DNA of 64,000 bases from a virus: positions 1-64,000 of the IMG/VR virus record IMGVR_UViG_3300022746_000019. One strand, 5' to 3'. The position numbers and the translations under genes were made by a program. The notes under the pieces are model-generated. The model did not search any database, was not told the DNA's origin, and worked only from the letters and a program-made list of their open reading frames with translations. This document shows, in pieces, positions 5,151 through 27,107 of the stretch (its first letter is position 1; the number at the start of each line of letters is the position of its first letter).

Positions 5151-5993
5151 TTAGTCGACGTACAGAACTGTCAGAGTAACAGTGGCACCTTCATCGATGA
5201 TATCGCCGGCGGCTGGATCCTGTGAGATAACGCGGCGTGTAGTGGTGTTCGAACCCCATACTGCGCCTGAGCAAACAGCGTCGAATGAGAGATCAGTATT
5301 AGCGAACGAAATGGTGTTTGCTACCTTATCCACTGCGGTCAACTGCTGGTAACCAAGTGCAATTGGAGTTTCGCCTGGGCCGGGAGCCACAATGAACTGG
5401 TCAATGTAAACAGTGTCGCCAGCTCGCAAGTTAAGCACGTCGTCAACAGTCAAAGTTACAGTAGAAGTAGTGGTCTTTCCGTGAGTTACGCCAGGATTAA
5501 CCGTGTAGGTATTCCAGGAAAGATTTGCTGCGGTAAGCGCTGGTGCGTATTCAGGAACTGCCATACCAACAACGTTTGGAACAACGGTCTCAAATCCTGG
5601 GTCGCCATCGCCTGCGTAGTTAGGGATGTAACCAGGGAAGTTTGAGTAACCAGTGGTTGCAATGATGTGGTTGTCAGCCGGAACTTTAACTTCAAATCCA
5701 CCAAAGGTGTTACCGATGGTTACTGAGTAATCTTCGGTCTGGAGCGTTCCGCTCTTGAAGTATGTAGTAGGAGCCCAGTAAGCGTCACCGCTACCGCCAC
5801 CAAAATTGGTCTCGGCGTAGCCGCGGTCATCGTTTGGCTGAAGCGGGAGGTTGCCCCAGACATAATCAACCTGGACTTCGCCCGTAACAATGACTGGGTC
5901 GCCAGTAATTGGATCGAGCACCGGGAACCAGCCTGAAGCGCCAGTCTCGGGGTTGTACTGCCAGGCCTTCTTTACATAAGACTCTCTAGCCAT
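5151..5993 (-). CDS. PASTA-domain protein with VDYVWGNLPLQPNDDR motif
   Basis: VVPNVVGM and VISQDPAAG...VTLTV halves of a PASTA repeat with an insertion between them. Confidence 0.7.
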   Translation of the reverse strand: MARESYVKKAWQYNPETGASGWFPVLDPITGDPVIVTGEVQVDYVWGNLPLQPNDDRGYAETNFGGGSGDAYWAPTTYFKSGTLQTEDYSVTIGNTFGGFEVKVPADNHIIATTGYSNFPGYIPNYAGDGDPGFETVVPNVVGMAVPEYAPALTAANLSWNTYTVNPGVTHGKTTTSTVTLTVDDVLNLRAGDTVYIDQFIVAPGPGETPIALGYQQLTAVDKVANTISFANTDLSFDAVCSGAVWGSNTTTRRVISQDPAAGDIIDEGATVTLTVLYVD

Positions 5994-7886: not shown

Positions 7887-8180
7887 TTACTTTTCGTTTT
7901 CCTTCTTGCCTGCGCGACGCTTGTTTTCCTTGGCGGTGTTCTTGCCATGCTTCAATGGGCGGAGGTTCGACTTCCGGTCGTCGGAGTGGTTGTTGTTCTT
8001 GTGGTCCACATCTGTGTTGCGGGAAAGTTTCGTCCCCGTCTTTTCTTCATAATCAGCGCGGGCCTTATTCTTCGAAGTGGTGACCCACTTCCCGCCGACC
8101 TTTTTCTTATAGACGTAAATCGGCCTGCCGCCGTTAGCGTCAGACCCCTTGTACGGGCCAAACTTCTTAGTCTCTGCCAC
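7887..8180 (-). CDS. HNH-like endonuclease
   Basis: DVDHKNNNHSDDRKSNLRPL...KN pattern. Confidence 0.7.
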   Translation of the reverse strand: MAETKKFGPYKGSDANGGRPIYVYKKKVGGKWVTTSKNKARADYEEKTGTKLSRNTDVDHKNNNHSDDRKSNLRPLKHGKNTAKENKRRAGKKENEK

Positions 8181-8434: not shown

Positions 8435-8677
8435 CTAGTAGATTTTACCAAGGTTGAGGTCTGACTTGCCTTCTGCGCTACCGGTAACAAAGTGAGAAGC
8501 CCGGTCAACAACATTTTGAATTCCGCTTACGGGATTCACGAACTTACCGACTTTGCCAATAATGTTTCCTAGACCACTGGATGCCGCGGCTTCTCCGCCA
8601 GCCACTGCTTCAGCGCCAGCGGCGGTTTCCGCCCCAAGTCCAAGTGCCCCAATAATTTCAGGGATTAACATCGCCAT
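8435..8677 (-). CDS. Gly/Ala-rich small protein, paralog of 8180-8419
   Basis: shares VVDRA[TS]xF and a C-terminal G-x-[MI]-Y. Confidence 0.6.
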   Translation of the reverse strand: MAMLIPEIIGALGLGAETAAGAEAVAGGEAAASSGLGNIIGKVGKFVNPVSGIQNVVDRASHFVTGSAEGKSDLNLGKIY

Positions 8678-8685
8678 AATCAGGC

Positions 8686-9105
8686 CTAGTACATTCCGTA
8701 GGGATTGGTTGTAACCTGCTGGTTGGCGTCAGCCTGACCTGCGACAAAGTGCCCAACGCGGCTTGCGGCGCGACCAGTTCCAGTTGCAACGCGGTTTGCA
8801 AGGTGTGCACCAACAATTGCCCCAATTTGAGGAGCGTAGGTAGTTCCGAGGTTTTCGGCCGCAGCCACATAGCGACCCTTGTTAGCGGCAAGGTGCGAGC
8901 CTACTTCACCAGCCATTCGACTCGTGGCGCTCTGCTGATGCGGAACACCCCTATCGGTGAGATCACGGACAGTGTTGGCGGCGTGTTCACCAATGTCAAC
9001 GAAGGACGCGGCGTTCTTGCCAGCAGTCTTGCCAATCTGGGATGCGTACTTAGCGCCTAACCGGCTGCCAATAGCAGCGCCTGCCGCCGATGCAAGGTAT
9101 CCCAT
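8686..9105 (-). CDS. Gly/Ala-rich protein
   Basis: AGGAG RBS; GAAIGSRLG, GAIVGAHL; ends YGMY. Confidence 0.6.
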   Translation of the reverse strand: MGYLASAAGAAIGSRLGAKYASQIGKTAGKNAASFVDIGEHAANTVRDLTDRGVPHQQSATSRMAGEVGSHLAANKGRYVAAAENLGTTYAPQIGAIVGAHLANRVATGTGRAASRVGHFVAGQADANQQVTTNPYGMY

Positions 9106-9236: not shown

Positions 9237-9725
9237 TTACGCGGTCTTTTCAATGGGGGCGGCAAACTTATGGGAGACTTCGTCAGCCGTCGGGAATCGA
9301 GACTCTCCGTCCCAATGGTAATCAGTAGCGCCTATGAGATGCACGGGAGAACCCGGTCTAATGGAGACTTCGCTCTCTCCCGACTCCTTAGTGTGGATTC
9401 CCTTTTGCGGTCGCTCCAGATTCCACTTGTTAACCTCTTCCCGGCTCATAACATGGTCGGGGTGCACAAATCCGTGAAGAACGGTGGACTTAATGTTGGA
9501 TCCGTTGTCTGGGTCAATAGTGCGATGCCTGCTGTCAAAGCTTCCCATATTTGCGAAGGTTTCAGCCACATCGCGAGAAGAACTCCAATGTGAACCGACA
9601 CGTCTTGCGGAATTAACCACATCTTCGTGAGAAACATCCCTGACGCCACGATAGACAGGCACATATCCATCGAATCGCGACCTACGCGGCATCGGTAGGT
9701 TTTGCCACTGTTTACCTTGTTCCAT
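9237..9725 (-). CDS. ADP-ribosyltransferase-like protein
   Basis: R-S-E layout: VYRG, HWSS..VAETFA, GESEV. Confidence 0.6.
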   Translation of the reverse strand: MEQGKQWQNLPMPRRSRFDGYVPVYRGVRDVSHEDVVNSARRVGSHWSSSRDVAETFANMGSFDSRHRTIDPDNGSNIKSTVLHGFVHPDHVMSREEVNKWNLERPQKGIHTKESGESEVSIRPGSPVHLIGATDYHWDGESRFPTADEVSHKFAAPIEKTA

Positions 9726-13923: not shown

Positions 13924-14030
13924 GGGCTGTGGTCCTCCTAGTGATTCGCGAATACCCAATTATAGCCTCGTTAGGCTACTGCCTGCACCTATTAACTAAC
14001 ACTGGCGCCTGTGCCCTGGACCCCATCTAT

Positions 14031-14046
14031 TCGAACAAACGTTCTA
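14031..14046. promoter_or_regulatory. LexA (SOS) box, Gram-positive/actinobacterial type
   Basis: TCGAAC-AAAC-GTTCTA, one mismatch to TCGAAC-N4-GTTCGA, in the divergent intergenic region. Confidence 0.55.
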
Positions 14047-14065
14047 AGGGTGGGGGGGTGTAGCC

Positions 14066-14104
14066 GTAACCGAATCGTTACCATGTCCGTTACCGAACCG
14101 TTAC
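14066..14104 (+). promoter_or_regulatory. two tandem GTWAC-N6-GTTAC boxes at the head of the cassette array
   Basis: GTAAC-cgaatc-GTTAC and GTTAC-cgaacc-GTTAC; the same box recurs before every cassette. Confidence 0.75.
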
Positions 14105-14211
14105 AAATCCAGGTGGCAGAGTGACAGCCCCGCATGGCATGGTTCTCCATGTGAAGGCAACCACGCCGACACCCCGCCCAATGGGGCGGTGACCTATCAA
14201 GGGGAGTAGCA

Positions 14212-14754: not shown

Positions 14755-14970
14755 ATGATTCCCAAGACTGAACAAGCGGTCTATGTAGTACTCCGACTCT
14801 CAAGCCTGTTCTTTGGCGGTTGGTGTTTCTACTTTGTAGTCCAGAGCCTGAACACCACCGGACCTACGCATGAGCGGGCGGTGGCATGGGCGGTCGCGAT
14901 GCTGTTCATCACGACAACCTACGAACTAATCCGGTTTGTCGCCCTGGTTCTGAACGGCAGACTCCGATAG
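14755..14970 (+). CDS. small membrane protein (cassette 1)
   Basis: GAAGGGG RBS; two hydrophobic helices. Confidence 0.65.
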   Translation: MIPKTEQAVYVVLRLSSLFFGGWCFYFVVQSLNTTGPTHERAVAWAVAMLFITTTYELIRFVALVLNGRLR

Positions 14971-15008
14971 CGAGGGGGCGGGGCGCGAGCCCCGCCTCAC
15001 CGCGGGAT

Positions 15009-15069
15009 TGTTTGTGTTGGCTCCCACCCTCCCAGAGCCTAACCTTAAAAGGGATAGTAGTAGAGAGAG
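15009..15069 (+). repeat. cassette-boundary element copy 1
   Basis: TGTTTGTGTT-GGCTC[CCACCCTCCCA]GAGCC-CCTTAAAAGG-GAGAGAG. Confidence 0.9.
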
Positions 15070-15193
15070 TCGTTACCAAATCGTTACAGATCACCCGTTA
15101 TCGAATCGTTACAAAACCAGGTGGCGCGGCGGCACGGAGTACGGCATAGTACTCCATGTGAACGGGAAATACCCGACACGGAAGGGGAACATC

Positions 15194-15424
15194 ATGTCTC
15201 GACCATTGAGTGCAATCGCTCAAGAAATTGAATCGGTATGGGCTAAGCCGTATTTCGGCGCGGTACCGTATCTGCGCGCTATGCGTTCACTGTCGTCAAT
15301 CACCGATAGTTTCTTCGATGACACCGCCGAAGGCGTCGTTATCTACTTTCTCGCTAACGCCGCCACATGGCGCGGCGAGGACGCCCGCCGCATCAAGGCA
15401 GAATTGCGGGGGATGTTGAAGTGA
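15194..15424 (+). CDS. conserved phage early protein (cassette 2)
   Basis: GAAGGGGAAC RBS; RPLS.IA.EI...AVPYL.AM..YFLANA.TWRG.DARRIKAEL, a recurring phage family of unknown function. Confidence 0.8.
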   Translation: MSRPLSAIAQEIESVWAKPYFGAVPYLRAMRSLSSITDSFFDDTAEGVVIYFLANAATWRGEDARRIKAELRGMLK

Positions 15425-15531
15425 CCGTTATCTTCTCCGCCCCCACATGCGCAGAGTGCAAGCGCGTGTTTGATCTGACCGATGAGACCGATTCGCACGA
15501 GTGGTATTTCGGACACGACTGCGAAGTGTGA
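15421..15531 (+). CDS. 36-aa Zn-binding protein (cassette 2)
   Basis: GTGA overlap; CAECKRVFDL...EWYFGHDCEV. Confidence 0.65.
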   Translation: MTVIFSAPTCAECKRVFDLTDETDSHEWYFGHDCEV

Positions 15532-15594
15532 GACCCCCGGCGGCCTGAGACCCCCGCTCAGGCCGCCGGCCCTGCGCCTGGCGGGATCCGGCGT

Positions 15595-15656
15595 TGTTTG
15601 TGTTGGACAGCCCTCCCACCCTGTCTCAACCCTAAAGGGATTAGGGAGGGAGAGAG
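15595..15656 (+). repeat. cassette-boundary element copy 2
   Basis: TGTTTGTGTT-GGACAG[CCCTCCCACC]CTGTCT-CCCTAAAGGG-GAGAGAG. Confidence 0.9.
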
Positions 15657-15759
15657 CTGCCGTTATCAAATCGTTATAAATCCAGGTGGCTGCTAGCCGT
15701 GGACTATGGCAGGGTTCTCCATGTGAGCGAGAAACTCTCGCCACGGAAGGGGAACTATC

Positions 15760-16176
15760 ATGGCCGCTGTGAAACTCAACGTTTCGTCAGCCATTGCGCT
15801 AATTGAAGCGCGCTTGTTGGAGGCAGACTTGCATGAGTCTGAAGAAGCCCGAATTAACGCGGAATACGAGAACGCTATCCGCGAATGGGACTTGCGTTGC
15901 GCCAGTCTGATTCGGAATGGCATCTCTGCCGAACTCGTCTCTGCCAAGACAACTATGTCTGGAACAGTTGTTGTCACGTTTGAGCTGGACGGGTACGCTG
16001 TCCCGCCCATGCCAATCAAGGCGGGGAACCCATACCGAAGCCTTGGCAAGGAGTACCGTCGCGGGCAGTACGTGGACGGGCGTGAAGAACTTCAGTTCGC
16101 TCTCAAACTGCTCCGCGCATCAGTTGGGGATACGGTAACCCTCTCCGCCCTCAACGGAGTCAAGAACTATCTCTGA
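15760..16176 (+). CDS. hypothetical protein (cassette 3)
   Basis: GAAGGGGAAC RBS; followed by a GAAA-loop hairpin. Confidence 0.8.
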   Translation: MAAVKLNVSSAIALIEARLLEADLHESEEARINAEYENAIREWDLRCASLIRNGISAELVSAKTTMSGTVVVTFELDGYAVPPMPIKAGNPYRSLGKEYRRGQYVDGREELQFALKLLRASVGDTVTLSALNGVKNYL

Positions 16177-16234
16177 GTAACTCCCTGGGGAGGCGCGAAA
16201 GCGCCTCCCTTCGGGGCGGACCGGCCGGCCGAAA

Positions 16235-16293
16235 TGTTTGTGTTGAGTCCCGCCCTCCCAGACTCTAACCCTAAAGGGATAGGAGGAGAGAGA
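16235..16293 (+). repeat. cassette-boundary element copy 3
   Basis: TGTTTGTGTT-GAGTC[CCGCCCTCCCA]GACTC-CCCTAAAGGG-GAGAGAG. Confidence 0.9.
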
Positions 16294-16462
16294 TCCGTTA
16301 CCAACTTGTTATAAATACCCGTTGCGCCTGGCCAGGGCGATCTGGTATGCCGCCTGCCTGAGCTGTCGTTATCAAACTGTAATAAATACTAGGTGCGGAT
16401 GTCATCCCTATGCCCTAAGTTTCTCCATGTGAGCAACTCCGCTCACCAAGAAAGGGGACGCC

Positions 16463-16789
16463 ATGAGCGTTTATGTGACAGGACCGCAGATGCTGGTTCA
16501 GTCCGAATTGGTCGCTTCGGGAGAAGCCGCCGTGGTATGCATGGAGGAACAGGCTCTTCGCGAGGTGGTTGACCTTCGCGATGAGTCCACATGGAGCCAA
16601 TACCGCGAGATTGTGTTTGTAATCCGCGATTCTGGCACCATTGAGGAATCGAAGGAAACGCTGCAAGAAGTCTTTGCGCGTTACCCTTACGCGCTGGACG
16701 CAATCGTCGTTCAGGGCAATTCGTGGCTCTCGGCAATTTGCGAGGACACCGATTGCTGCCCGCCCGAGGGTAAGCCCGTCCACAACTAA
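16463..16789 (+). CDS. hypothetical protein (cassette 4), DUF4192-like C-terminus
   Basis: AAAGGGGA RBS; ends WLSAICEDTDCCPPEG. Confidence 0.75.
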   Translation: MSVYVTGPQMLVQSELVASGEAAVVCMEEQALREVVDLRDESTWSQYREIVFVIRDSGTIEESKETLQEVFARYPYALDAIVVQGNSWLSAICEDTDCCPPEGKPVHN

Positions 16790-16796
16790 ACAGAGA

Positions 16797-16832
16797 AGCC
16801 GCCCGTCCCGCGAGGGGCGGGCGGTCTTTTTT
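16797..16832 (+). terminator. intrinsic terminator
   Basis: GCCGCCCGTCCC-GCGA-GGGGCGGGCGGT-CTTTTTT. Confidence 0.85.
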
Positions 16833-16907
16833 ATGCGCCCAAGCCCCCGGTGGCCTAGGGATCCGGATCTGCCCAGCTGCCTGGGCGGGCCGGCCAGCCA
16901 GCAGAAT

Positions 16908-16966
16908 TGTTTGTGTTGAGCACCCACCCTCCCAGTGCTCTTATATAGGGGTTGGGGGGAGAGAGA
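16908..16966 (+). repeat. cassette-boundary element copy 4
   Basis: TGTTTGTGTT-GAGCAC[CCACCCTCCCA]GTGCTC-...-GAGAGAG. Confidence 0.9.
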
Positions 16967-17151
16967 TCGATCATCGTTATCGAATTGTTATAAAAGAGAC
17001 TTGAACCGGCCAGGGCCGTGTGGTATGTCGCGTGCCTGAGCTTTCGTTACCAAACCGTTATAAAAACCCCATGCAAAGTGGCGGGTGAGTGTGGAATAGT
17101 TCACCTCGTGAGCAACACCGCTCACCTCAAACTCCGAAGGGGAGTGACGCC

Positions 17152-17550
17152 ATGAGTATGTATGGCGACCCGAATCAGGCGGGTACACCTGACAACACCG
17201 AGTGCTATCGGTGCGGCTTGCTCGATAAAGAGGTCGCGTACCTCAAGGGCACGATTCAGAATCTGCGTGCCACGCTCGCAGAGATTGGCGAAGCCCTTTG
17301 GGACCAAGCCAAAGAAGACATTGACAACGGCGAACCCGTTGCCACCTTCTCATTCGACGACATCCGCGAATTGGCGCAGCAGTGCGGCGTTTCGACTAAT
17401 GTCTCGTTCGTACTCACTGCCTCATTCGAAGCCCGCCTCACGGCTCCGTATGGCACCACGGCAGAAGAGGTCCTCAACGGTCTGAGCATCGACTCTGACT
17501 TTGACCTCGACGACTACGGCTTCGAGAGCGAAGAACTCGAGCCTCGCTAG
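17152..17550 (+). CDS. hypothetical protein (cassette 5), paralog of 18562-18960
   Basis: 132 aa; YGDPNQAG.P...CxxC, coiled coil, ASFEA.L.APYGT. Confidence 0.8.
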   Translation: MSMYGDPNQAGTPDNTECYRCGLLDKEVAYLKGTIQNLRATLAEIGEALWDQAKEDIDNGEPVATFSFDDIRELAQQCGVSTNVSFVLTASFEARLTAPYGTTAEEVLNGLSIDSDFDLDDYGFESEELEPR

Positions 17551-17587
17551 CCGACCGGAGGGGGGCGAAAGCCCCCCTCCCCCACAC

Positions 17588-17704
17588 TTCCCGCCCCGCC
17601 CTCTCTCCCCCGTAGGGCGGGGCGGGAAACACTCCAAGGGGATGCCGGAGTGACCTGGCCCACATAAGCCGCTTGGCGGGGTACTTCCCCTTCCCCCGCC
17701 AAGC
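17588..17704 (+). ncRNA. candidate C-rich-loop twin-hairpin RNA A
   Basis: 15-bp stem with loop CTCTCCCCCGT; 11-bp stem with loop TACTTCCCCTTC. Confidence 0.45.
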
Positions 17705-17736
17705 CCGCCTGGAGCTCCGGATCCGGCGGCCGGGAA

Positions 17737-17785
17737 TGTTTGTGTTGACCCACCCTCCTCATTGGGAATGTGTGTGGGAGAGAGA
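17737..17785 (+). repeat. cassette-boundary element copy 5 (degenerate)
   Basis: TGTTTGTGTTGA-CCCACCCTCCT-...-GAGAGAG. Confidence 0.85.
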
Positions 17786-17892
17786 TCGTCGATCACCGTT
17801 ACGCAACTGTAATAAATCCAGGTGGCGTGGGGCGGAGAGATAGGGCAGGATTCATCCCGTGAGCAACCGCTCACACTTAGAAGGGAAGCACC

Positions 17893-18099
17893 ATGAAAAT
17901 TTGGATTAACGTCCACAACGGGCAGACTACCTGCCCGGAACACGCAGGCAATGAGTTGTCATTCTCAATTGAGAGTGCGCCCACGGCACTGCAGCACGAG
18001 ACTTCGTTCGGTACATGGGTAGCAGCCACGCCCGAAGAGGTCCAAGACTTGGTACTCATCGCGGGCGACGCCTGCGAGACTTGCGCGTTCGGATTTTAG
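17893..18099 (+). CDS. small Cys/His protein (cassette 6)
   Basis: AGAAGGGA RBS; CPEHAG...CETC. Confidence 0.75.
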   Translation: MKIWINVHNGQTTCPEHAGNELSFSIESAPTALQHETSFGTWVAATPEEVQDLVLIAGDACETCAFGF

Positions 18100-18101
18100 C
18101 C

Positions 18102-18341
18102 ATGAAGTTTGTAGTCCGCGCCGACCAGAAGATTGAGTACAAAGAATTCGTCGTGGAGGCCGAAATCCTCTCTGCCGCCCAAGAGATTGTGTCAAATTTA
18201 ATTGACATGGACTTTGAGGTCCAGTTCTCCACCTGGACAGTGGGCATCGACGAAGCGCCGGAAACTAAGCCGTGTGATCGGTGCGGAGAGCCGGTCGATC
18301 TGACCGAGACTTACTGCGACGCGCAATGCGCTGAGGGGTAG
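18102..18341 (+). CDS. hypothetical protein with C-terminal Zn finger (cassette 6)
   Basis: CDRC...YCDAQC. Confidence 0.65.
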   Translation: MKFVVRADQKIEYKEFVVEAEILSAAQEIVSNLIDMDFEVQFSTWTVGIDEAPETKPCDRCGEPVDLTETYCDAQCAEG

Positions 18342-18380
18342 TGATACAGCCAGCCTGGTCCCCGAGAGGGGGCCGGGCCG

Positions 18381-18440
18381 GTTTGTGTTGGAGTCCCACC
18401 CACCCTGACTCTTACCTTTCAGGGATTGGTGGGAGAGAGA
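18381..18440 (+). repeat. cassette-boundary element copy 6
   Basis: GTTTGTGTT-GGAGTC[CCACCCACCCT]GACTCT-CCTTTCAGG-GAGAGAG. Confidence 0.9.
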
Positions 18441-18561
18441 TACGGCAGATCGCCCGTTATCGAACTGTAATAAATCCAGGTCGCAATTGTCGGTGGCATG
18501 CGGCATAGTTCACCTTGTGAGCAACAAGGCTCACACAAGACTCCGAAGGGGAGTGGTCGCC

Positions 18562-18960
18562 ATGATTTATGGCGAGAACCCGATTCAGGCGGGGAATCCT
18601 GAAGCCGCAGTATGCGCGGACTGCATGCAGAAAGACAGGCGGATTGCCTCGCTGGAGTCAACCGTCCAGCGCAAGGTAAACGACATGACTGCTGTCGGGA
18701 AGCGACTCTGGGCTGACACCCAGTCTTGCATCGACGAGGGTTACACCGAAGTGACCTTCACTGTCGAAGACATGCGGGCACTAGTGGATCTGCTGGGTAT
18801 CAGCACGGACATCCGCGTGCGCGTCACTGCCACCTTTGAGGCTATCCTAGATGTGCCCTACGGCACTGACCCGGACTACCTGATCGAGTCGTTCAGTGTC
18901 GACTGTGAGCATGACATGCTCCATTTCGGGTTCTCCGACGAAACTGTCGAACCCGAATAA
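18562..18960 (+). CDS. hypothetical protein (cassette 7), paralog of 17152-17550
   Basis: 132 aa; YGENPIQAGNP...CADC, ATFEA.LDVPYGT. Confidence 0.8.
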   Translation: MIYGENPIQAGNPEAAVCADCMQKDRRIASLESTVQRKVNDMTAVGKRLWADTQSCIDEGYTEVTFTVEDMRALVDLLGISTDIRVRVTATFEAILDVPYGTDPDYLIESFSVDCEHDMLHFGFSDETVEPE

Positions 18961-19029
18961 CTTCCCCCGGAAGTTCCGCACCTGGGCATGTGTTTAAACT
19001 GCCCACCACTACTAAGAAGGGATAAGACA

Positions 19030-19089
19030 ATGATTACTGATCTATACAACAGCTGGACTAACCGCGAGACATGGGCGGTTAATCTCTAG
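19030..19089 (+). pseudogene. truncated gene remnant
   Basis: strong AAGAAGGG RBS, then MITDLYNSWTNRETWAVNL-TAG; resembles the YNGWTNxETWxVxLW phage family, with TAG at the Trp position. Confidence 0.55.
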
Positions 19090-19093
19090 AACC

Positions 19094-19170
19094 TCCCGCC
19101 CAGTCTCTTCCCCTTCAGGCTGGGCGGGATCGGCCCGCCGACCTCAGCCACACTCCCCCGGTGGCTGGGG
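19094..19170 (+). ncRNA. candidate C-rich-loop twin-hairpin RNA B
   Basis: 13-bp stem (one G-U) with loop CTTCCCCTTC; CAGCCAC/GTGGCTG stem with loop ACTCCCCCG. Confidence 0.45.
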
Positions 19171-19218
19171 GACGGCACCCGGCTGGGCTGCTGTGGCAGC
19201 TCGGCCGGGCGGCCGCTT

Positions 19219-19278
19219 TGTTTGTGTCGGACGCCCACCCTCCCTCCGTCCTCTTATTAGGAATTATGGGAGAGAGAG
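19219..19278 (+). repeat. cassette-boundary element copy 7
   Basis: TGTTTGTGTC-GGACG[CCCACCCTCCCTC]CGTCC-...-GAGAGAG. Confidence 0.88.
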
Positions 19279-19449
19279 CCGTTACCTAATTGTTATGAAA
19301 GATCCTTGACCTTCCAGGCAGATCATGCTAGGGCCGGGGATTCTGACGCCGTTACCAAACTGTAATAAAAGTAGGTGGAGAGTGTCAGTGCCATGCCGTA
19401 AGTTTCTCCATGTACCGAAGCCCAGTAGGTACAAAGAAGGGAGTTCGCC

Positions 19450-19680
19450 ATGAGCGAGCAAGACTTTCTCGAATTCAGGTTCGAGGATAGCGAGTATGTA
19501 CGAACCGCTCGAGTTAGCCGCGATGTAATCCAAGGCCTGCTTATCAGCCGAATGAGCATGGACAGAATCATCAAGGCTACTGAATTGGTAGCCCGCACGG
19601 TTACCCCTGAGAATCAAGAAGAAGCGAACGCTGGCGGCTCGTGGGCGTTCATCACTGCGACACGGAAGGTGAGTGCCTGA
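19450..19680 (+). CDS. hypothetical protein (cassette 8)
   Basis: AGAAGGGAG RBS. Confidence 0.7.
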   Translation: MSEQDFLEFRFEDSEYVRTARVSRDVIQGLLISRMSMDRIIKATELVARTVTPENQEEANAGGSWAFITATRKVSA

Positions 19681-19681
19681 C

Positions 19682-20041
19682 ATGGGTAACCGTTCTGAGA
19701 TTATTGTCCAGAGCGATTCATTCGCTAGCAACCTCGTGTTCTACGGTCACTGGTCCGGGACGGACAACCTGCTCGCAGTAGCGAGAGTCCTCCAGCGTAC
19801 CGACCGCGTGGGCGACCCCTCGTACCTCGCGGCTCAGGTTTACTTCGAGTTCGCTGTGAACCTCGGACAGACTGACGGCAACCTGTCGTTCGGTATCCGC
19901 GCCTCCGATGGCACTGAGTGGGTGATGTGCGATGAACCGCCGGTCTACCTCAACGCCGACACGGGAGAGGTGGTCTACCAAGACATGACTCTGTCGAAGG
20001 ACACTCTCAAGGGTCTATTGTTAGACTCGCTCACCAAGTAA
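19682..20041 (+). CDS. conserved phage protein MGxR...YxHWxG family (cassette 8)
   Basis: MGNRSEI...FYGHWSG N-terminal pattern. Confidence 0.75.
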   Translation: MGNRSEIIVQSDSFASNLVFYGHWSGTDNLLAVARVLQRTDRVGDPSYLAAQVYFEFAVNLGQTDGNLSFGIRASDGTEWVMCDEPPVYLNADTGEVVYQDMTLSKDTLKGLLLDSLTK

Positions 20042-20095
20042 TCAACACGGGGAGGCTGGAAAGTCCAGCCTCCCCTACCTAAGAAGGGAAACGCA

Positions 20096-20575
20096 ATGCA
20101 TACTGCACACTTAATGCTAGTCCGAGCTGAGTCCCCAGAGGGAGCTCAGAACTATGTCGAATCGCGGCTCACTCACGACACCACTGTCGAACAGTGGTGG
20201 GACTGGTTCGCCATAGGCTCCGACGGTCGGTATTCACTCTCAAGCGCCATTGAGGGCTGGACCGGGGACGACTATGTCGTAGGGCTTGAAGCTACCCCTG
20301 GGCTGTTCCACCTAGCTGTGGACACTTTCTACGAATACCGCCGGCAAGCATTCGACCGGCACTCAGCTGAGCTGGAGAACAATGGCTGGATGTTCAGGCT
20401 CGACCAGGATGACATGATTACCTGGCGGCTCCGCCGGTTTGCCGACCTCTCCGCGTCTTACTATTGCGCGGAGAGCCATGTCTATGACCTGCATAATTTC
20501 TCAGCTAACTTGGATCTGTTCATTAAGGACACGGGTACTGACTGGTTCGCTGTCCTGGTGGATTTCCACTACTGA
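20096..20575 (+). CDS. hypothetical protein (cassette 8)
   Basis: AGAAGGGA RBS; WWDWFAIG...VLVDFHY family pattern. Confidence 0.75.
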   Translation: MHTAHLMLVRAESPEGAQNYVESRLTHDTTVEQWWDWFAIGSDGRYSLSSAIEGWTGDDYVVGLEATPGLFHLAVDTFYEYRRQAFDRHSAELENNGWMFRLDQDDMITWRLRRFADLSASYYCAESHVYDLHNFSANLDLFIKDTGTDWFAVLVDFHY

Positions 20576-20655
20576 CCAACCGGCAGGCGGGAGTTGCGCC
20601 CCGCCTGCCGCCTCCCCGCCCGCGATCGTGCCCGCCAGCGCGATCGCGGGCACTT

Positions 20656-20704
20656 TGTTTGTGTTGGCCCTCCCACCCCGCTTAGGGAGTTGTTGTGAGA
20701 GAGA
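20656..20704 (+). repeat. cassette-boundary element copy 8 (degenerate)
   Basis: TGTTTGTGTTGG-CCCTCCCACCCC-...-GAGAGAG. Confidence 0.85.
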
Positions 20705-20840
20705 TTTGATCTGTCCAGGGGTATTTGTTACATTTGGGTAACGGAATGATCGTTATCGAATCGTTATGGTTAATTCGTTGACACTGTCAGTGCGTGCTGT
20801 AATGTCTGCCATGCATTCAGTACCTAGAGAGAGAGATACC

Positions 20841-21533
20841 ATGAAGGCACTCAAGCGATCGACTGATTCTAAAGTGGCTAATAGCCTTACCCCCGGAGGG
20901 AAGGGCAGAATCGCCAATTCATTCGGGCTACCCTCGGGCAGGGCGTACTCATGCCCTGCAGCTACTAGTGTCTGCGAGTCAGTGTGCTACGCGGGCAAGC
21001 TGGAGAAAATTCGCCCGACCGTCCGTAATCTACTCATGCACAATTGGGATCTCCTCCGGGAGGCGGATCGACATACTATGTATGACCTACTAGTGAGCAT
21101 GCTTACGGAATTCGACGCCGAATGCGACAAATGGGACGCAGAGAAGCTGTTCCGCATTCATTGGGACGGAGACTTCTTCTCCCCGGAATATGTAGCCGCC
21201 TGGGCAGCTGCGATGGCGGAATTCCCGCAGATTCGATTCTGGGTATATACACGGGTAGACTACGCTGCTAGGATCCTCCGCCATACCCCTAATCTCTCCC
21301 TGTACTTCAGTGGAGATTCAGAGAATGCCGAAACGGCAGAGAGAATGTCCGCCTTGGGCGTCAATATCGCCATGCTAGGGAAGACTTTCGATCTGGCACG
21401 CGAGGCACTGTCTGTACGGGCGGCAAAGTGCCCCGAACAGCGCGGGCAGATTGCCCTTGCCGGTGCCTGCGTCGCATGCAAAATCTGCATCAAGGGAAAC
21501 ACAAGCATTACATTCTCGATTAGTAAGAAGTAG
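20841..21533 (+). CDS. mycobacteriophage gp88-like (radical-SAM-like) protein (cassette 9)
   Basis: FGLP...SCP..T.VC...CYA, FRIHWDGDF, FWVYTR, C-terminal C..CxxCxxC. Confidence 0.75.
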   Translation: MKALKRSTDSKVANSLTPGGKGRIANSFGLPSGRAYSCPAATSVCESVCYAGKLEKIRPTVRNLLMHNWDLLREADRHTMYDLLVSMLTEFDAECDKWDAEKLFRIHWDGDFFSPEYVAAWAAAMAEFPQIRFWVYTRVDYAARILRHTPNLSLYFSGDSENAETAERMSALGVNIAMLGKTFDLAREALSVRAAKCPEQRGQIALAGACVACKICIKGNTSITFSISKK

Positions 21534-21541
21534 GAGTAACC

Positions 21542-21757
21542 ATGAGAAGGCCCAAAGTCGCCGAAGTCAACAATTGGACTATCGTAGAGGATATGTCTAA
21601 TGAGATCGCCACTGTCTGGGAGGCGGACAATATCCCAGACTTCTTCAAACTCACCTCACCGGCTCATGCCACCAAGCTCTTCTACGGAGAAACAGCGTGG
21701 CAGGACGCCCAAAGGCTTTCCAGTGATCTATTCTTCAAGGTCAGGGTAGCCTCATGA
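21542..21757 (+). CDS. hypothetical protein (cassette 9)
   Basis: AGGAG RBS; FYGETAW. Confidence 0.7.
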   Translation: MRRPKVAEVNNWTIVEDMSNEIATVWEADNIPDFFKLTSPAHATKLFYGETAWQDAQRLSSDLFFKVRVAS

Positions 21758-21760
21758 TCT

Positions 21761-21836
21761 GAGCTCGGGGCTTTCCCCTTCTCCCCGAGCTCCGCTAGGC
21801 GGTTCAGCAGTACCTCTCTCACTGCTGGACCGCTTT
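21761..21836 (+). ncRNA. candidate C-rich-loop twin-hairpin RNA C
   Basis: 10-bp stem with loop CTTTCCCCTTCT; 13-bp stem (one G-U) with loop ACCTCTCTC, then TTT. Confidence 0.45.
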
Positions 21837-21864
21837 GGCGTGTCTGCGCCCGGGCAGCCTCGCA

Positions 21865-21917
21865 TGTTTGTGTTGGCCCACCCTCCCCGAATAGGGAGTA
21901 TGTATGTAGAGAGAGAG
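21865..21917 (+). repeat. cassette-boundary element copy 9 (degenerate)
   Basis: TGTTTGTGTTGG-CCCACCCTCCCC-...-GAGAGAGAG. Confidence 0.85.
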
Positions 21918-22331
21918 CAATCGTTACCAAACTGTGACCGGCCGGGGCTTGACACAGCTCCCCGGCCTGTGCTAGGCGGCAAAATGATCTAATTTGTCGA
22001 CAAAGCGCTTTGTGCATACAGCTATTTGTGCATAAAGAGAGAGAGAAGAGAAGAGAAGAGAGAGCCGGCTCGGCTACTGCCCCAGCAGATCGAGGCTTAA
22101 ACGCGGGCAACACCAGGCCATACGCCTATCCTCCCCGTTCCTATCAACTAGCCCCCTATGTCCTCTATCCCTATCTCTCTCTATCTATCTCTTAGGTACT
22201 AAGAAGGGAAATTCATAAAGGCGCCGATTTTTACGCGGGGGCGACCCTGTATGTATTCGTTATCAAACTGTTACCGAATAGGCGGGAGAATAATTTGCAT
22301 AATGTCAGTACGGGCGATAATAATTTGCCCC

Positions 22332-24479: not shown

Positions 24480-24820
24480 TGAAAATTGAAGAAAATGTAG
24501 TCTTTGACAAAGACGGTAACTCAATCACGCTTGAGGAATGGGTGACGCTCTTCCGGTATGAGAACTACTTTAAGCTCGTTAATTATGGCGAGGACGGCTA
24601 CAAGGTTGTCACCAAGTGGACCGGCGTAGATACCGCTCCCCTTGAAAAGTCTGGCAGCAACTCATTCGCCTACAGTCGCTGGACACCCAACGAAACCCCG
24701 CTGATCAACATCTCATTCGTGTTCAACCAAGACGATGTGCTGCTGGAGTACGACAAGTACCCGGACTCAGCATCGGCTCGTGCGGGTCACGAACGACTCT
24801 GCAATATCTATTGCAAATGA
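24479..24820 (+). CDS. hypothetical protein
   Basis: coupled ORF ending at the terminator. Confidence 0.65.
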   Translation: MKIEENVVFDKDGNSITLEEWVTLFRYENYFKLVNYGEDGYKVVTKWTGVDTAPLEKSGSNSFAYSRWTPNETPLINISFVFNQDDVLLEYDKYPDSASARAGHERLCNIYCK

Positions 24821-24853
24821 AAAACGCCCCCCGTATTTGGGGGGCGTTTCTTT
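24820..24853. terminator. bidirectional terminator
   Basis: AAAAACGCCCCCC-GTATTT-GGGGGGCGTTTCTTT between convergent blocks. Confidence 0.85.
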
Positions 24854-26886
24854 CATCCTGTTATCAGTTTCACTTCGCAGGCATCCGTGGTGCAATATGC
24901 CTCTCCGATAGCATCCGCTGCCATTCCGGCGTAAACCCCAGACAGATCGATTGGGAAGAGCTTCATCTCCCCCTCGTCTACATATTCTTGTTCAGTAATA
25001 CGCGTGTAAGGCATTTGAGGATAGACATGATTACCAGACGGCAAGAAACTCACAGTCTTGAGCTGCCCGTCGTACATATGGAGCACAGTTCCAATGTGAT
25101 CCTTCTCTGTCTCTGGGTCAAAGGTGATAGTCACAGAGACGGAGTTGTCCGACCAGTACCGCTGTGCGGTGGACGCGAGAGCCATCTTCTCAAAGACAGT
25201 TACATCGCGCTCAGCTCGCTTGGCTTCGGACTTAATTGGGAAGAACACGACACTAGTTCCCTTTGGGTCTTCGCTGGCCGGCTCCACGCGATACTGAGCC
25301 ATCTTGAACAATGGCAGCATCGGGTCATTGTTGGAGAATCGAATAGCACGCAGGAAGTACTTTCCGCCCGGAGTCCAGTGGACGCCCGGACTCTCACCAG
25401 CGAGGATCGAGACAGTTCCCGACGGCTTGATAGTGGTGGTCTTAATAGACTCGCGCACACCCAGCCATTCGGAATACTTCTTGTCGTAGTGCTGAACAGT
25501 CGCGTAACCCTCGTCCATCCAAAGGCGGAGTTCGGGCATACCACGGTTGTCAGCGAAGTTAGCGACGCCAGACATCGAGGTTCCGATGCGGCGGTTGCGC
25601 TGCATGATGGCATTGGTCTCTTCCCAGTGGGTCGGGAGAAGCGTCACAGTCTTGGCGTAGAGGTAGGCGAACTTCAATGTGCGGTTGTAATCCTCAAGGG
25701 AGTCATGGCGGTTGAGGTAAGTCTCAACCAAGGTGCACATCTCGTACGACTCAAGGCTCTGCTCAGCGCATGGGTTGTAGCCAGCTGCTCGCCAGTCCTT
25801 GTTGTTAGGCTGATCGATAAGGCGTCCGTACTTGCGAGTGACATCCATCCAGATAACGCCCGGTTCTCCGTTGAGTGCGATGCCATCCACAATTCCCGAG
25901 AGGTCGTCACCTACAGAGACGGACACAGAGTTGTTGGACATCCAGCCCCAGCCTGGAGCGGCGGGGTCGTAGGAGTTGCGTTCTGGGTAAACCTCTGGGT
26001 TCTTGAGGTTCAGGAAGTCTGGATCATCGATGGAGCCAATGAGAAGTTCTGCGGAGCGGCGGACATTGCCCGATACGACGCAGACGCCAATGAGGTTGCC
26101 AATGTCAGCAATGTCCTTGCGGGTGACCTGCTCACCGGCGCGTCCCTTGAACAAGTTAGCAATGTGATTGTGCAAACGCATAAGTGGCTCGGGGCCAGCT
26201 GCGGTGCCGCCGAAAGTGCGGATGGGTTCTCCCGCCAAACGAATCTGGGAGTAGTCAAACTCCACGCATGGCTGATCCGACTTCAAGTAGGAGTTGATTA
26301 CCTCAACCACGGACTCTACCCAGCCTTCGCGAGTGTCCGGAATGACCGCGGTCTTGCACTCGTCCTTGGGCTGGTAGATGGTGAATCCCTTGTCCGCACC
26401 CTTCTGGTCGAACCCGACACCGACGCCCAGCATGGACGCTTCCATGAGGAACGCGAACGGAGCGGCGGGGTTGTTCTTCGTCATGCTCTCGGTGCTGACG
26501 AACGCACAGTTCTGCAGGGCGGCACTGTTCTTCTGCTCATTGACGAGCGGGGTACCCATGACCCACAGCCCACGACCGGGCGGAGTCCACTTGAGGTTGA
26601 ACAGTCGATCGAAGGCTTCTTTGGCCGACGCAGCGGCGCGGCTGTCATTCCAGGGAAGTCGGTTGGACTTGCAGTGATCCTTCTGCAGGCTGTACATACC
26701 GTTGATGACGCGCTCGCAAACATCTACCCAAGTCTCCTTGGTGCCGTCCTCTTTCAAACGACTGTAGGTGCGGAGAAATGTAATCTCACCAACGGAATTA
26801 CCGGCGGCATCTCGATACCCCCAAGGAACGGGTTTGCCTCTGTAACCAGCGACAAAGTCTTCAGCAAGACGGAACGAAAGTGCCAT
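24853..26886 (-). CDS. nrdJ: class II (B12-dependent, monomeric RTPR-type) ribonucleotide reductase
   Basis: PPGRGLW, LQNCAF, GNVRRSA, YNPCAEQ, TIKPSGT, C-terminal CTTDACE. Confidence 0.93.
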   Translation of the reverse strand: MALSFRLAEDFVAGYRGKPVPWGYRDAAGNSVGEITFLRTYSRLKEDGTKETWVDVCERVINGMYSLQKDHCKSNRLPWNDSRAAASAKEAFDRLFNLKWTPPGRGLWVMGTPLVNEQKNSAALQNCAFVSTESMTKNNPAAPFAFLMEASMLGVGVGFDQKGADKGFTIYQPKDECKTAVIPDTREGWVESVVEVINSYLKSDQPCVEFDYSQIRLAGEPIRTFGGTAAGPEPLMRLHNHIANLFKGRAGEQVTRKDIADIGNLIGVCVVSGNVRRSAELLIGSIDDPDFLNLKNPEVYPERNSYDPAAPGWGWMSNNSVSVSVGDDLSGIVDGIALNGEPGVIWMDVTRKYGRLIDQPNNKDWRAAGYNPCAEQSLESYEMCTLVETYLNRHDSLEDYNRTLKFAYLYAKTVTLLPTHWEETNAIMQRNRRIGTSMSGVANFADNRGMPELRLWMDEGYATVQHYDKKYSEWLGVRESIKTTTIKPSGTVSILAGESPGVHWTPGGKYFLRAIRFSNNDPMLPLFKMAQYRVEPASEDPKGTSVVFFPIKSEAKRAERDVTVFEKMALASTAQRYWSDNSVSVTITFDPETEKDHIGTVLHMYDGQLKTVSFLPSGNHVYPQMPYTRITEQEYVDEGEMKLFPIDLSGVYAGMAADAIGEAYCTTDACEVKLITG

Positions 26887-27107
26887 TAATTTACTCCTCT
26901 AAGGTTGCGTACTTTATTTTCACATTTTTGACACTCAACCCATTGGGACGGGAAAGTGTAAGAATCATTGTCTATGCGGGCGGTGGGGCGGTCAGCATCA
27001 TGCTCTACGCGAACCCCGCAAAATGACTTTAAGCCTGGGGCTTCCTCAATCTGATCGGTGGCATGCCAAACACCCGTACCACTGCGGACTGCGTAGTGCC
27101 TATTCAT
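26886..27107 (-). CDS. hypothetical protein
   Basis: AGGAG RBS; H..C..CxxC. Confidence 0.6.
   Translation of the reverse strand: MNRHYAVRSGTGVWHATDQIEEAPGLKSFCGVRVEHDADRPTARIDNDSYTFPSQWVECQKCENKVRNLRGVN

Follow-up and report, generated by a model that had tools for sequence, protein, structure and literature searches.

A repeated boundary signal with an optional covarying hairpin in the small-gene arrays of uncultured lake phages

We analyzed a repeated element with a C-rich tract in a DNA stretch of 64,000 nucleotides (hereafter, the window), which comprises positions 1-64,000 of the 90,007-bp IMG/VR virus record IMGVR_UViG_3300022746_000019 (completeness estimate 94%). The element is a real, undescribed boundary signal in a family of uncultured ~95-kb lake phages, since it stands after each unit of a small-gene array and recurs in dozens of related lake phages. 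Its strictly conserved part is a short handle, GTTTGTGTTG(G), and the covarying hairpin described in the initial annotation is one optional module behind this fixed handle, because stemless and C-tract-free forms occupy the orthologous site upstream of a gene encoding a GP88-like protein.

Copies of the element in the window and in related phages

Nine copies are present on the plus strand between 15010 and 21916, each composed of the handle GTTTGTGTY, a C3-N-C3-N-C3 tract, GGGA-N-T, and GAGAGAG. The handle reads exactly GTTTGTGTT at 15010, 15596, 16236, 16909, 17738, 18381, 20657, and 21866, and occurs as the variant GTTTGTGTC at 19220. In six of the nine copies the C tract is enclosed by a stem of 5-6 bp (P1), the sequence of which is unique to each copy and the Watson-Crick length of which is 5, 5, 5, 6, 5, and 5 bp, respectively. 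Reading of the region 14800-22200 confirmed the stems, C tracts, second hairpins, and GAGAGAG motifs quoted in the initial annotation, as well as its three C3 runs with variable single-base linkers and its three copies without a clear stem (17738, 20657, and 21866).

The pattern CCCNCCCNCCC has 10 matches in the window compared to 0.64 expected, a number reached in none of 100 shuffles, and eight of these matches lie on the plus strand between 15023 and 21887. The looser pattern CCCNCCCNCC gave nine plus-strand matches in the 90-kb genome, every one inside the copy-bearing stretch. A covariance model built from 22 related copies recovered all nine window copies on the plus strand (E-values of 2.7e-8 to 0.011) and found nothing comparable elsewhere in the window, the next matches having E-values of 0.32 and 0.67. 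The bit scores given below for individual copies are those of this model.

In copy 1 (15010..15068, +; 52.9 bits), the handle GTTTGTGTT at 15010-15018 is followed by P1 at 15019-15039 (GGCTC/CCACCCTCCCA/GAGCC), the small hairpin CCTTAAAAGG, and GAGAGAG. Copy 2 (15596..15656, +; 30.9 bits) has its handle at 15596-15604 and P1 at 15605-15626 (GGACAG/CCCTCCCACC/CTGTCT, with an outer G-T pair), followed by CCCTAAAGGG and GGGAGGGAGAGAG. The handle of copy 3 (16236..16292, +; 52.4 bits) at 16236-16244 precedes P1 at 16245-16265 (GAGTC/CCGCCCTCCCA/GACTC), CCCTAAAGGG, and GAGAGAG, and that of copy 4 (16909..16965, +; 45.9 bits) at 16909-16917 precedes P1 at 16918-16940 (GAGCAC/CCACCCTCCCA/GTGCTC), a G-rich tract, and GAGAGAG. 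Copy 6 (18381..18439, +; 47.4 bits) carries the handle at 18381-18389, P1 at 18390-18412 (GGAGTC/CCACCCACCCT/GACTCT, again with an outer G-T pair), CCTTTCAGG, and GGTGGGAGAGAG. The variant handle GTTTGTGTC of copy 7 (19220..19278, +; 22.6 bits) spans 19220-19228 and is followed by P1 at 19229-19251 (GGACG/CCCACCCTCCCTC/CGTCC) and GAGAGAGAG. The stemless copies consist of the handle followed by GACCCACCCTCCTC, ATTGGGAAT, and GTGTGTGGGAGAGAG in copy 5 (17738..17784, +; 22.5 bits); by GGCCCTCCCACCCC, GCTTAGGGAGT, and TGTTGTGAGAGAG in copy 8 (20657..20703, +; 25 bits), which has the majority form of the relatives; and by GGCCCACCCTCCCC, GAATAGGGAGT, and ATGTATGTAGAGAGAGAG in copy 9 (21866..21916, +; 23.8 bits), the last copy, after which comes the different, long leader of gene 22251.

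A pattern scan of IMG/VR with the handle plus the C tract returned 76 stretches, counted as 64 contigs, many of them 90-98 kb in length (mostly ~95 kb); about seven stretches (L008, L011, L016, L057, L059, L066, and L067) lack the rest of the element and are apparent chance matches. The window and the IMG/VR stretches together hold 174 instances of the element, 143 of them unique, and the covariance model has 45 matches with E-values up to 0.001 in the 710 kb of window and loci. The C tract follows the handle immediately (GTTTGTGTTG-R-CCC...) in 80 of the 143 unique copies, which are thus stemless, and is separated from it by 3-7 additional bases in the other 63. An ending in a GAGAG tract was found in 118 unique copies (56 of the stem form and 62 stemless).

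The expectation that no described Rfam family would match was borne out, the whole window giving no match at gathering score and the region 14800-22200 nine irrelevant matches at E-values up to 5. The 6C and cuckoo RNAs, to which the initial annotation had likened the element, were not among these nine, so this kinship was not upheld; cuckoo RNA is presumably part of Rfam release 15. Among cultured phages, a megablast search with 7.2 kb found nothing and a blastn search with one copy gave matches at chance level only (E ~6). Searches of prokaryote genomes detected the core of the element in only three contigs of metagenome-assembled genomes (MAGs), labelled Nanopelagicaceae, uncultured archaeon, and Rhodoferax, which are probably binned phage DNA. 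Literature searches with motif strings and keywords, the reach of which excluded supplements, returned only unrelated papers and no description of such an element.

Covariation of the stem

The stem was assessed as the longest contiguous Watson-Crick helix across the C tract in each of the 56 unique stem-form copies, one small and constant set of registers being searched throughout. The mean contiguous stem was 4.59 pairs compared to 2.39 when the 3' flanks were permuted among copies (maximum mean of 2.96 in 2000 permutations). At least five Watson-Crick pairs were present in 43 of the 56 copies, which show 28 distinct 5' arms and fall into two registers, with the loop CCNCCCNCCC plus A or T in 24 copies and CCCNCCCNCC or longer in 19. 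In the alignment of the 22 copies underlying the covariance model, which is biased in that the copies were picked for having a stem, 92.9% of cells were paired (72.7% in shuffles) and the covariation score was 0.642 (0.236 in shuffles, none of 500 as high). The alignment fitted by the model, which leans towards that model, gave 92.9% paired cells (73.5% in shuffles) and a covariation score of 0.566 (0.221 in shuffles, again none of 500 as high). Selection on the pairing of the stem rather than on its sequence, as claimed in the initial annotation, is supported by these results. The terminal G-T pairs of two copies, which it had read as favoring folding of the plus strand, turned out to be uninformative on strand, because the handle always supplies their 5' partner, a fixed G or T, which makes an A-C alternative impossible.

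The 3' arms of P1 are followed by TAAC, CAAC, TTAT, or TTAC and by no T run, and the terminator scan lists no P1 hairpin; P1 itself was thus rejected as an intrinsic terminator, there being no U tract directly after the stem. Most stem copies have a second small hairpin (mean stem of 3.9 compared to 2.7 in shuffles), which occurs in several stem types and is absent in some lineages. For 58 stemless copies, RNAalifold returned just an invariant 3-bp CCC/GGG pairing.

The loop of copies 2 and 6 is indeed complementary to downstream sequence, as had been noted, but the pseudoknot suggested on this basis is unsupported across the family. The longest helix between the C tract and its own downstream purine tract averaged 4.18 pairs compared to 4.17 after permutation in the 56 stem copies (fraction of permutations at least as high, 0.50, or 0.20 with G-U pairs) and 4.42 compared to 4.37 in the 62 stemless ones, and a copy-specific pairing of this kind was rejected. 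An intramolecular triplex of the GT block on the purine tract was rejected by reading, the C tract not being the complement of GAGAGAG. A classical Rho loading (rut) site is C-rich, G-poor, unstructured, and roughly 60-80 nt in length; the element, in which the C-rich patch measures only about 25 nt, is unlike such a site. Of 61 stemless copies (the three of the window and 58 from loci), 58 carry one and the same base directly 3' of the C tract and directly 3' of the first GG(G)A (A/A in 22, G/G in 20, and T/T in 16); mixed A/G was never seen, and the tandem repeat of 2-4 nt after GGGA begins with the same base.

The composition of the tract bears on a reading in terms of non-B DNA, which we consider very unlikely. 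The GGG-N-GGG-N-GGG template strand would form a G-quadruplex or G-triplex, or the C strand an i-motif, upstream of promoters, where it would block read-through polymerase or absorb supercoils. The runs are conserved and the linkers vary as in G-quadruplex or i-motif sequences, and for oncoming transcription the template strand is the one that carries the tract. However, a fourth C run within 35 nt occurs in just 44 of 118 unique copies, so that a four-run quadruplex or i-motif is not a general feature; such structures would face competition from the covarying stem around the tract; and one orthologous site (L030) has no tract at all.

Position relative to terminators and promoters

All nine window copies are located in gaps between plus-strand genes. 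In relatives, the element lies at a median distance of 89 nt from the upstream stop codon and at least 176 nt from the next start. By a crude call of open reading frames (ORFs) that over-counts spurious antisense ORFs, a co-oriented ORF is present upstream in 104 of 125 evaluable copies and downstream in 104 of 132. The order of parts in a gap is the stop codon, a GC-rich terminator-like hairpin, the handle GTTTGTGTTG(G), and the C3-N-C3-N-C3 tract, which either lies in the loop of the covarying stem or has a small CCC/GGG hairpin immediately 3' of it. After the tract come GGGA-N-T, a short tandem repeat, and GAGAGAG, followed by operator-like boxes, a promoter-like part, and the next 5' untranslated region (UTR).

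A hairpin of -10 kcal/mol or lower ends within 8 nt of the handle in 89 of the 143 unique copies; among the other 54, 19 follow a T run and a second conserved module, and most of the remaining 35 have a strong hairpin 10-19 nt upstream. In the window, 16 terminator-like sites were found compared to 7.7 expected, six of them just upstream of elements, and the handle forms the T-rich tail of five. The terminator-like GC hairpin at 14991..15006 (+) has a T-rich tail that continues into the handle of copy 1. Small GC hairpins adjoin the handle of copy 5 (17722..17734, +) and, followed by CTTT, that of copy 7 (19202..19215, +). An 11-bp hairpin with G-U pairs adjoins the handle of copy 6 (18353..18378, +), and a 14-bp hairpin followed by ACTTT precedes that of copy 8 (20618..20651, +). 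The one canonical-looking terminator (16798..16825, +; 12-bp stem, CTTTTTT) lies ~80 nt upstream of copy 4, and the element therefore stands beyond a terminator.

The promoter region of the first unit (13925..14211, +) has the direct-repeat boxes, promoter-like part, and 5' UTR hairpin of the later units, with no handle and no plus-strand C tract. The element is missing before the first unit in the window array and in three more inspected arrays (L029, L040, and L058). Since the first unit has its promoter region without the element, the promoter does not need it; the need lies with something that comes from upstream. An inverted C tract, CCCCCCCACCC (plus strand, TAAGGGTGGGGGGG), occurs upstream of the first unit at 14048-14058 (-), and CCCCCCCACCCTTAA recurs in L039, L052, and L069 without a handle.

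Lineages differ 3' of GAGAGAG, with CGTTAYC-N4-YGTWAY direct repeats in the window and TGTGA-N6-TCACA, TTATCCACA, or GACACGCC in others; promoter-like hexamers and a 5' UTR hairpin follow these boxes. The window boxes (CGTTAY-N5-YGTWAY, 11-nt period, one or two per cassette) are located at 14088, 15071, 15096, 15661, 16296, 16367, 16975, 17045, 17797, 18455, 19280, 19350, 20751, and 22258 (+) and at 20727 (-), and in shape they are like the binding sites of the OmpR regulator family, for instance those of GlnR or PhoP. Between the handle and the first box, the spacing ranges from 59 to 94 nt. A promoter consensus scan gave six sites compared to 4.4 expected, none at cassettes; by eye, TTGACA/TTGACC/TTGAAC-N17-TAnnnn hexamers were recognized in copies 4, 7, 8, and 9, and every 5' UTR is preceded by a conserved -10-like GGCATAGTT/TAAGTTTC. 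A promoter for a phage RNA polymerase, considered because AACCCTAAAGGGA..GAGAG resembles the start region of T3/T7 promoters, was rejected on the grounds that no polymerase was found, the 692-amino-acid ORF at 24811-26889 (+) belonging to no family, and that the spacing of the parts varies.

Each 5' UTR carries a second covarying hairpin 40-60 nt upstream of the start codon (e.g., at 15737-15757, 16432-16449, 17111-17128, and 18518-18538) with arms such as GTGAGC..GCTCAC, GTGAACGGG..CCCGACAC, and GTACC..GGTAC, followed by the G-rich ribosome site GAAGGGGA. The motif GGCTACTGCC at 13974-13983 and 22072-22081 (+) brackets the array, standing before the first unit and after the last element, and recurs near array ends in L029 and L040 and in many leaders of relatives. 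In the 300-nt leader of gene 22251, a 30-nt tract of A and G only (22034-22065, +) is followed ~90 nt on by a C/T-rich tract (22126-22193, +), with CCTATCCTCCCC...CTCTCTCTATCTATCTCTT; the two tracts are partly complementary, and a similar pair is found in L013.

The handle and alternative architectures in relatives

The handle is exact in all 146 C-tract-linked copies, about 70 of which are free observations, the search having demanded at least one exact copy per locus; at the remaining 12 C tracts of the loci, no trace of a handle was seen. In relatives, the handle pairs with CCAACACAAAC 65-140 nt downstream and thereby closes larger hairpins, so that these read GTTTGTGTTGG ... CCAACACAAAC, whereas the window copies are without any 3' partner. 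Closed structures are of two kinds, a multi-hairpin element starting with the C tract and a plain long palindrome with an interior unique to each copy, and both occupy the same post-terminator position as the open form. The long palindromes (L013:6795-6883, 8024-8102, 8664-8745, and 9412-9495; also L015, L047, L069, and others) are 65-93 nt in length with 26-41 pairs and GTTTGTGTTGG/CCAACACAAAC at the base, and arrays of related phages such as L013 have one of them after each terminator. In the plain palindromes, 32 of 613 pairs are G-U on the sense strand compared to 9 of 578 on the antisense one; folding is more stable for the sense strand in 12 cases and for the antisense strand in three, with four ties. 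An element subclass, CCCCATTCCCCTACGGGGAATCGAGAGAG, runs directly into a GC hairpin with GAGAG as its 5' arm (L006, L010, L020, L026, L047, and L069; e.g., L006:734-781, -) and is opposite in direction to its neighbors, apparently at a convergent junction.

The handle is the sole part common to the open, closed, palindromic, and handle-only forms, and duplex DNA is the only state that all of them share. Together with its exact conservation, its orientation following that of the genes, and its location where a pause or termination signal would be, this is consistent with a DNA-level docking site, a reading that we regard as improbable. A phage or host protein with sequence specificity would recognize the handle, perhaps with the C/G tract, in double-stranded DNA or in the non-template strand of a transcription bubble, and would act as a roadblock, pause, or recruitment site at unit borders, the stem being secondary. 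Known comparisons for recognition in the bubble are ops/RfaH and the T-rich pause signals of NusG. Such a site leaves unexplained the covarying stem and also the closed forms, whose interiors vary while staying palindromic, something that requires a folded single strand. Moreover, it shows no fixed phasing, given the varying distance from handle to box, and no DNA-binding candidate was found among the 40 ORFs scanned for families out of 128 listed, most of which are without a family.

The gene content of the cassettes is almost wholly different between relatives, and the boundary element is kept; homologues in the loci were found for only two of 17 submitted window cassette ORFs (three of the 17 mis-framed and uninformative), and identity in the GP88-like protein that the relatives have in common is just 50-63%. 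This pattern, the different forms of the element at the same orthologous site, and the RecA encoded by the phage are in line with a recombination module, in which handle and tract would serve as short homologies or folded single-strand sites for cassette swaps between co-infecting relatives. Integron attC sites are likewise conserved in fold and ends rather than sequence, with core sites RYYYAAC ... GTTRRRY at the ends of an imperfect palindrome and a dedicated recombinase. The element resembles them as a cassette-border site with conserved ends, variable interior, and a conserved fold of one strand. However, its ends GTTTGTG...CACAAAC (GTTTGTGTTGG ... CCAACACAAAC) misfit the attC core motifs, the order being reversed; the genes here carry their own promoters; and the 40 scanned ORFs include no tyrosine recombinase (IntI) or other integrase, HUH protein, or other recombinase. 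Homologous exchange, furthermore, requires neither a hairpin nor C runs. For T4-type phages, recombination between terminator-promoter cassettes is stated to drive modular shuffling (PMC2839356). Overall, we consider that recombination is an unlikely role of the element.

A tentative model of insulation from read-through transcription

The initial annotation named a small RNA, an antitermination or processing site, and a folded recombination site as candidate functions. The after-terminator position of the element and its absence before the first unit, both features of sequence and gene order, favor a putative boundary or processing role over that of a free-standing small RNA. We tentatively prefer to view the element as a post-terminator insulator that would act on read-through transcription inside terminator-promoter cassettes resembling the promoter-early stem-loop (PeSL) cassettes of T4-type phages. 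The hairpin would be an optional module of a composite boundary element separating plus-strand transcription units. Its stem would fold in the sense strand, most likely in RNA from polymerases leaking through the terminator, and would hold the C tract unpaired for binding. This role is proposed for the stem because the stemless tract tends to pair with the following purine tract, a pairing also predicted in the minimum free energy (MFE) folds of five of the six window stem copies and offered here as the rationale for the stem. Possible partners of the freed tract are a protein with a preference for single-stranded C-rich RNA, for which Rho is the standard example in bacteria, another factor, and G-rich RNA, for instance that of a Shine-Dalgarno region. 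As a net effect, read-through RNA would be stopped, silenced, or cut, and each unit would be driven by its own promoter alone.

Several observations weigh against this insulator. The stem is dispensable, with 80 of the 143 unique copies stemless, and of the 15 loci with the orthologous site before the GP88-like gene, only four have a stem of 5 bp or more, ten being stemless and one (L030) having the handle without a C tract. The stem is also weak (about -7 kcal/mol for the centroid structure of copy 1), and P1 is not part of the predicted MFE fold in five of the six stem copies. No window copy is more stable than its shuffles (z-scores of -1.25 to +1.33), and thermodynamic stability was accordingly dropped as a source of support. 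Wobbles at variable positions of the stem do not tell the strand (eight G-U compared to four A-C), and the closed C-tract forms have no sense bias (3 of 274 compared to 16 of 294). No copy-specific pairing of the C tract with downstream sequence was detected, and the C-rich, G-poor patch is short, spanning ~25 nt (positions 10-35; 49% C and 13% G) before a purine-rich patch with 34% G. Finally, the handle is single-stranded in the open form and paired in the closed and palindromic forms, which fits recognition of duplex DNA better than recognition of RNA.

A bolder proposal, which we consider unlikely, is that the handle GTTTGTGTTG(G) and the C3 tract form the docking platform of a dedicated factor that would read the sense strand, as nascent RNA or as non-template DNA, at each border. 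The hairpin would keep the C runs single-stranded, and the various architectures would be interchangeable on one 11-nt handle within a private punctuation system. If true, this would constitute a new class of phage cis-regulatory element of the rank of the nut/put or ops sites.

Comparison with known systems

The closest counterparts of the arrangement are the PeSL cassettes of T4-type phages, which combine a terminator stem-loop with a promoter (Arbiol et al., 2010; PMC2839356). The likeness extends to a small regulatory cassette that is repeated in all gaps of a region with many small, non-essential genes, to a terminator stem-loop beside a promoter (promoter-like here), and to inter-cassette gene content that differs among relatives. 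Terminator-like hairpins likewise stand in the gaps of the small-gene array described here. In contrast, the PeSL is described as consisting of promoter and terminator only, whereas a handle of 10-11 nt, a C tract in which the covarying stem is optional, and a purine tract are placed between the two here; in addition, the promoter-proximal boxes vary by lineage, and these phages have no kinship with T4. No counterpart is known for the two additions to the PeSL-like cassette, the handle and the C-tract hairpin.

In T7, RNase III processing hairpins stand between early genes that share one promoter set and one terminator. The element resembles these as a putative structured RNA element at early-gene borders, and the 30-40 bp palindromes of the relatives would suit RNase III. 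It differs in that each unit has its own promoter and terminator and in the 5-6 bp window stem, which is too short for RNase III.

The C-rich loop also invites comparison with small RNAs that pair with ribosome-binding sites. The loop holds sequence of the CCUCC/UCCC type, the ribosome sites of the cassettes (GAAGGGGA) are G-rich, and the host is probably an actinobacterium, so that an anti-Shine-Dalgarno riboregulator of phage or host mRNAs, acting in cis from a 3' UTR or in trans as a small RNA, can be envisaged; we think it quite unlikely. Precedents are 6C RNA, the UCCC loops of staphylococcal Rsa RNAs, and the icaR 3' UTR (PMC6486639, PMC3868564, and PMC2790875). The likeness to 6C RNA consists in a hairpin with a C-rich loop, a probably actinobacterial setting, and possible pairing with G-rich mRNA (PMC6486639). 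However, 6C is a free-standing conserved small RNA gene, whereas the element is a single short hairpin with an 11-nt loop, repeated nine times behind terminators and unmatched by the 6C covariance model. Similarly, the UCCCC motif of the Staphylococcus aureus icaR 3' UTR is a C-rich, anti-Shine-Dalgarno-like motif downstream of a coding region (PMC3868564), but the phage element lies beyond a terminator-like hairpin and is repeated at every unit, and the likeness is one of sequence, the pairing being putative here. Further points against a riboregulator are the varying linkers between C runs (A/T, A/A, T/A, G/T, G/A, and A/G), which argue against one fixed pairing partner; the location beyond terminator-like hairpins, so that abundance would be low; the absence of an evident promoter upstream of the element; and flanks that, by reading, do not consistently extend the complementarity to ribosome sites.

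Returning to the proposed post-terminator insulator, phages house their functions for host takeover and anti-defence in arrays of small early genes, and the separation of the units of such arrays is poorly known outside T4. The element offers an unusually clean case, with a 10-nt motif exact in 146 copies despite the divergence of the shared protein and with textbook compensatory change in the adjoining stem. It is a candidate for a new RNA-family entry and is usable for locating early-gene arrays in freshwater phage metagenomes. A binding factor, if one exists, would provide a route to a new mechanism of termination, insulation, or processing, probably in actinobacterial hosts; if the element only marks recombination borders, it would still map the units of gene exchange in this phage family.

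Phage genome and probable host

The window encodes a tailed phage with genes for terminase, baseplate, tail-fibre, DNA polymerase, helicase, and methyltransferase, as well as RecA, DnaB, primase, deoxynucleoside monophosphate kinase, and a class II ribonucleotide reductase. Nearly all genes are carried by the minus strand; the sole plus-strand block (~14.0-24.8 kb) is composed of small genes without known family, except for that of the GP88-like protein, and its small-gene array (~14-22 kb) is probably early or accessory. A search of sequencing runs listed no RNA run for the stretch, and two freshwater DNA runs contain 0.32 and 0.08 of its words.

The terminase is closest to those of Streptomyces phages (53% amino acid identity with Streptomyces phage BRock), and GP88 and PASTA domains were found among the phage proteins. 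The PASTA domain, typical of Gram-positive and actinobacterial cell-wall proteins, occupies the C terminus of a 280-amino-acid protein encoded at 5151-5993 (-) of the window (E-value of 8.9e-8), which provides a hint to the host. The host is probably an actinobacterium, a lead rather than a result, because of the terminase kinship, the GP88 and PASTA domains, and the MAG contig labelled Nanopelagicaceae. A cyanobacterial host was considered and rejected, GCGATCGC being present once in the 90 kb. Downstream of the array, a 692-amino-acid ORF at 24811-26889 (+) and a 677-amino-acid ORF at 24853-26886 (-) overlap on opposite strands; the minus-strand ORF encodes the class II ribonucleotide reductase (Pfam E-value of 1e-28), and the plus-strand ORF, which has no family, is probably a shadow frame.

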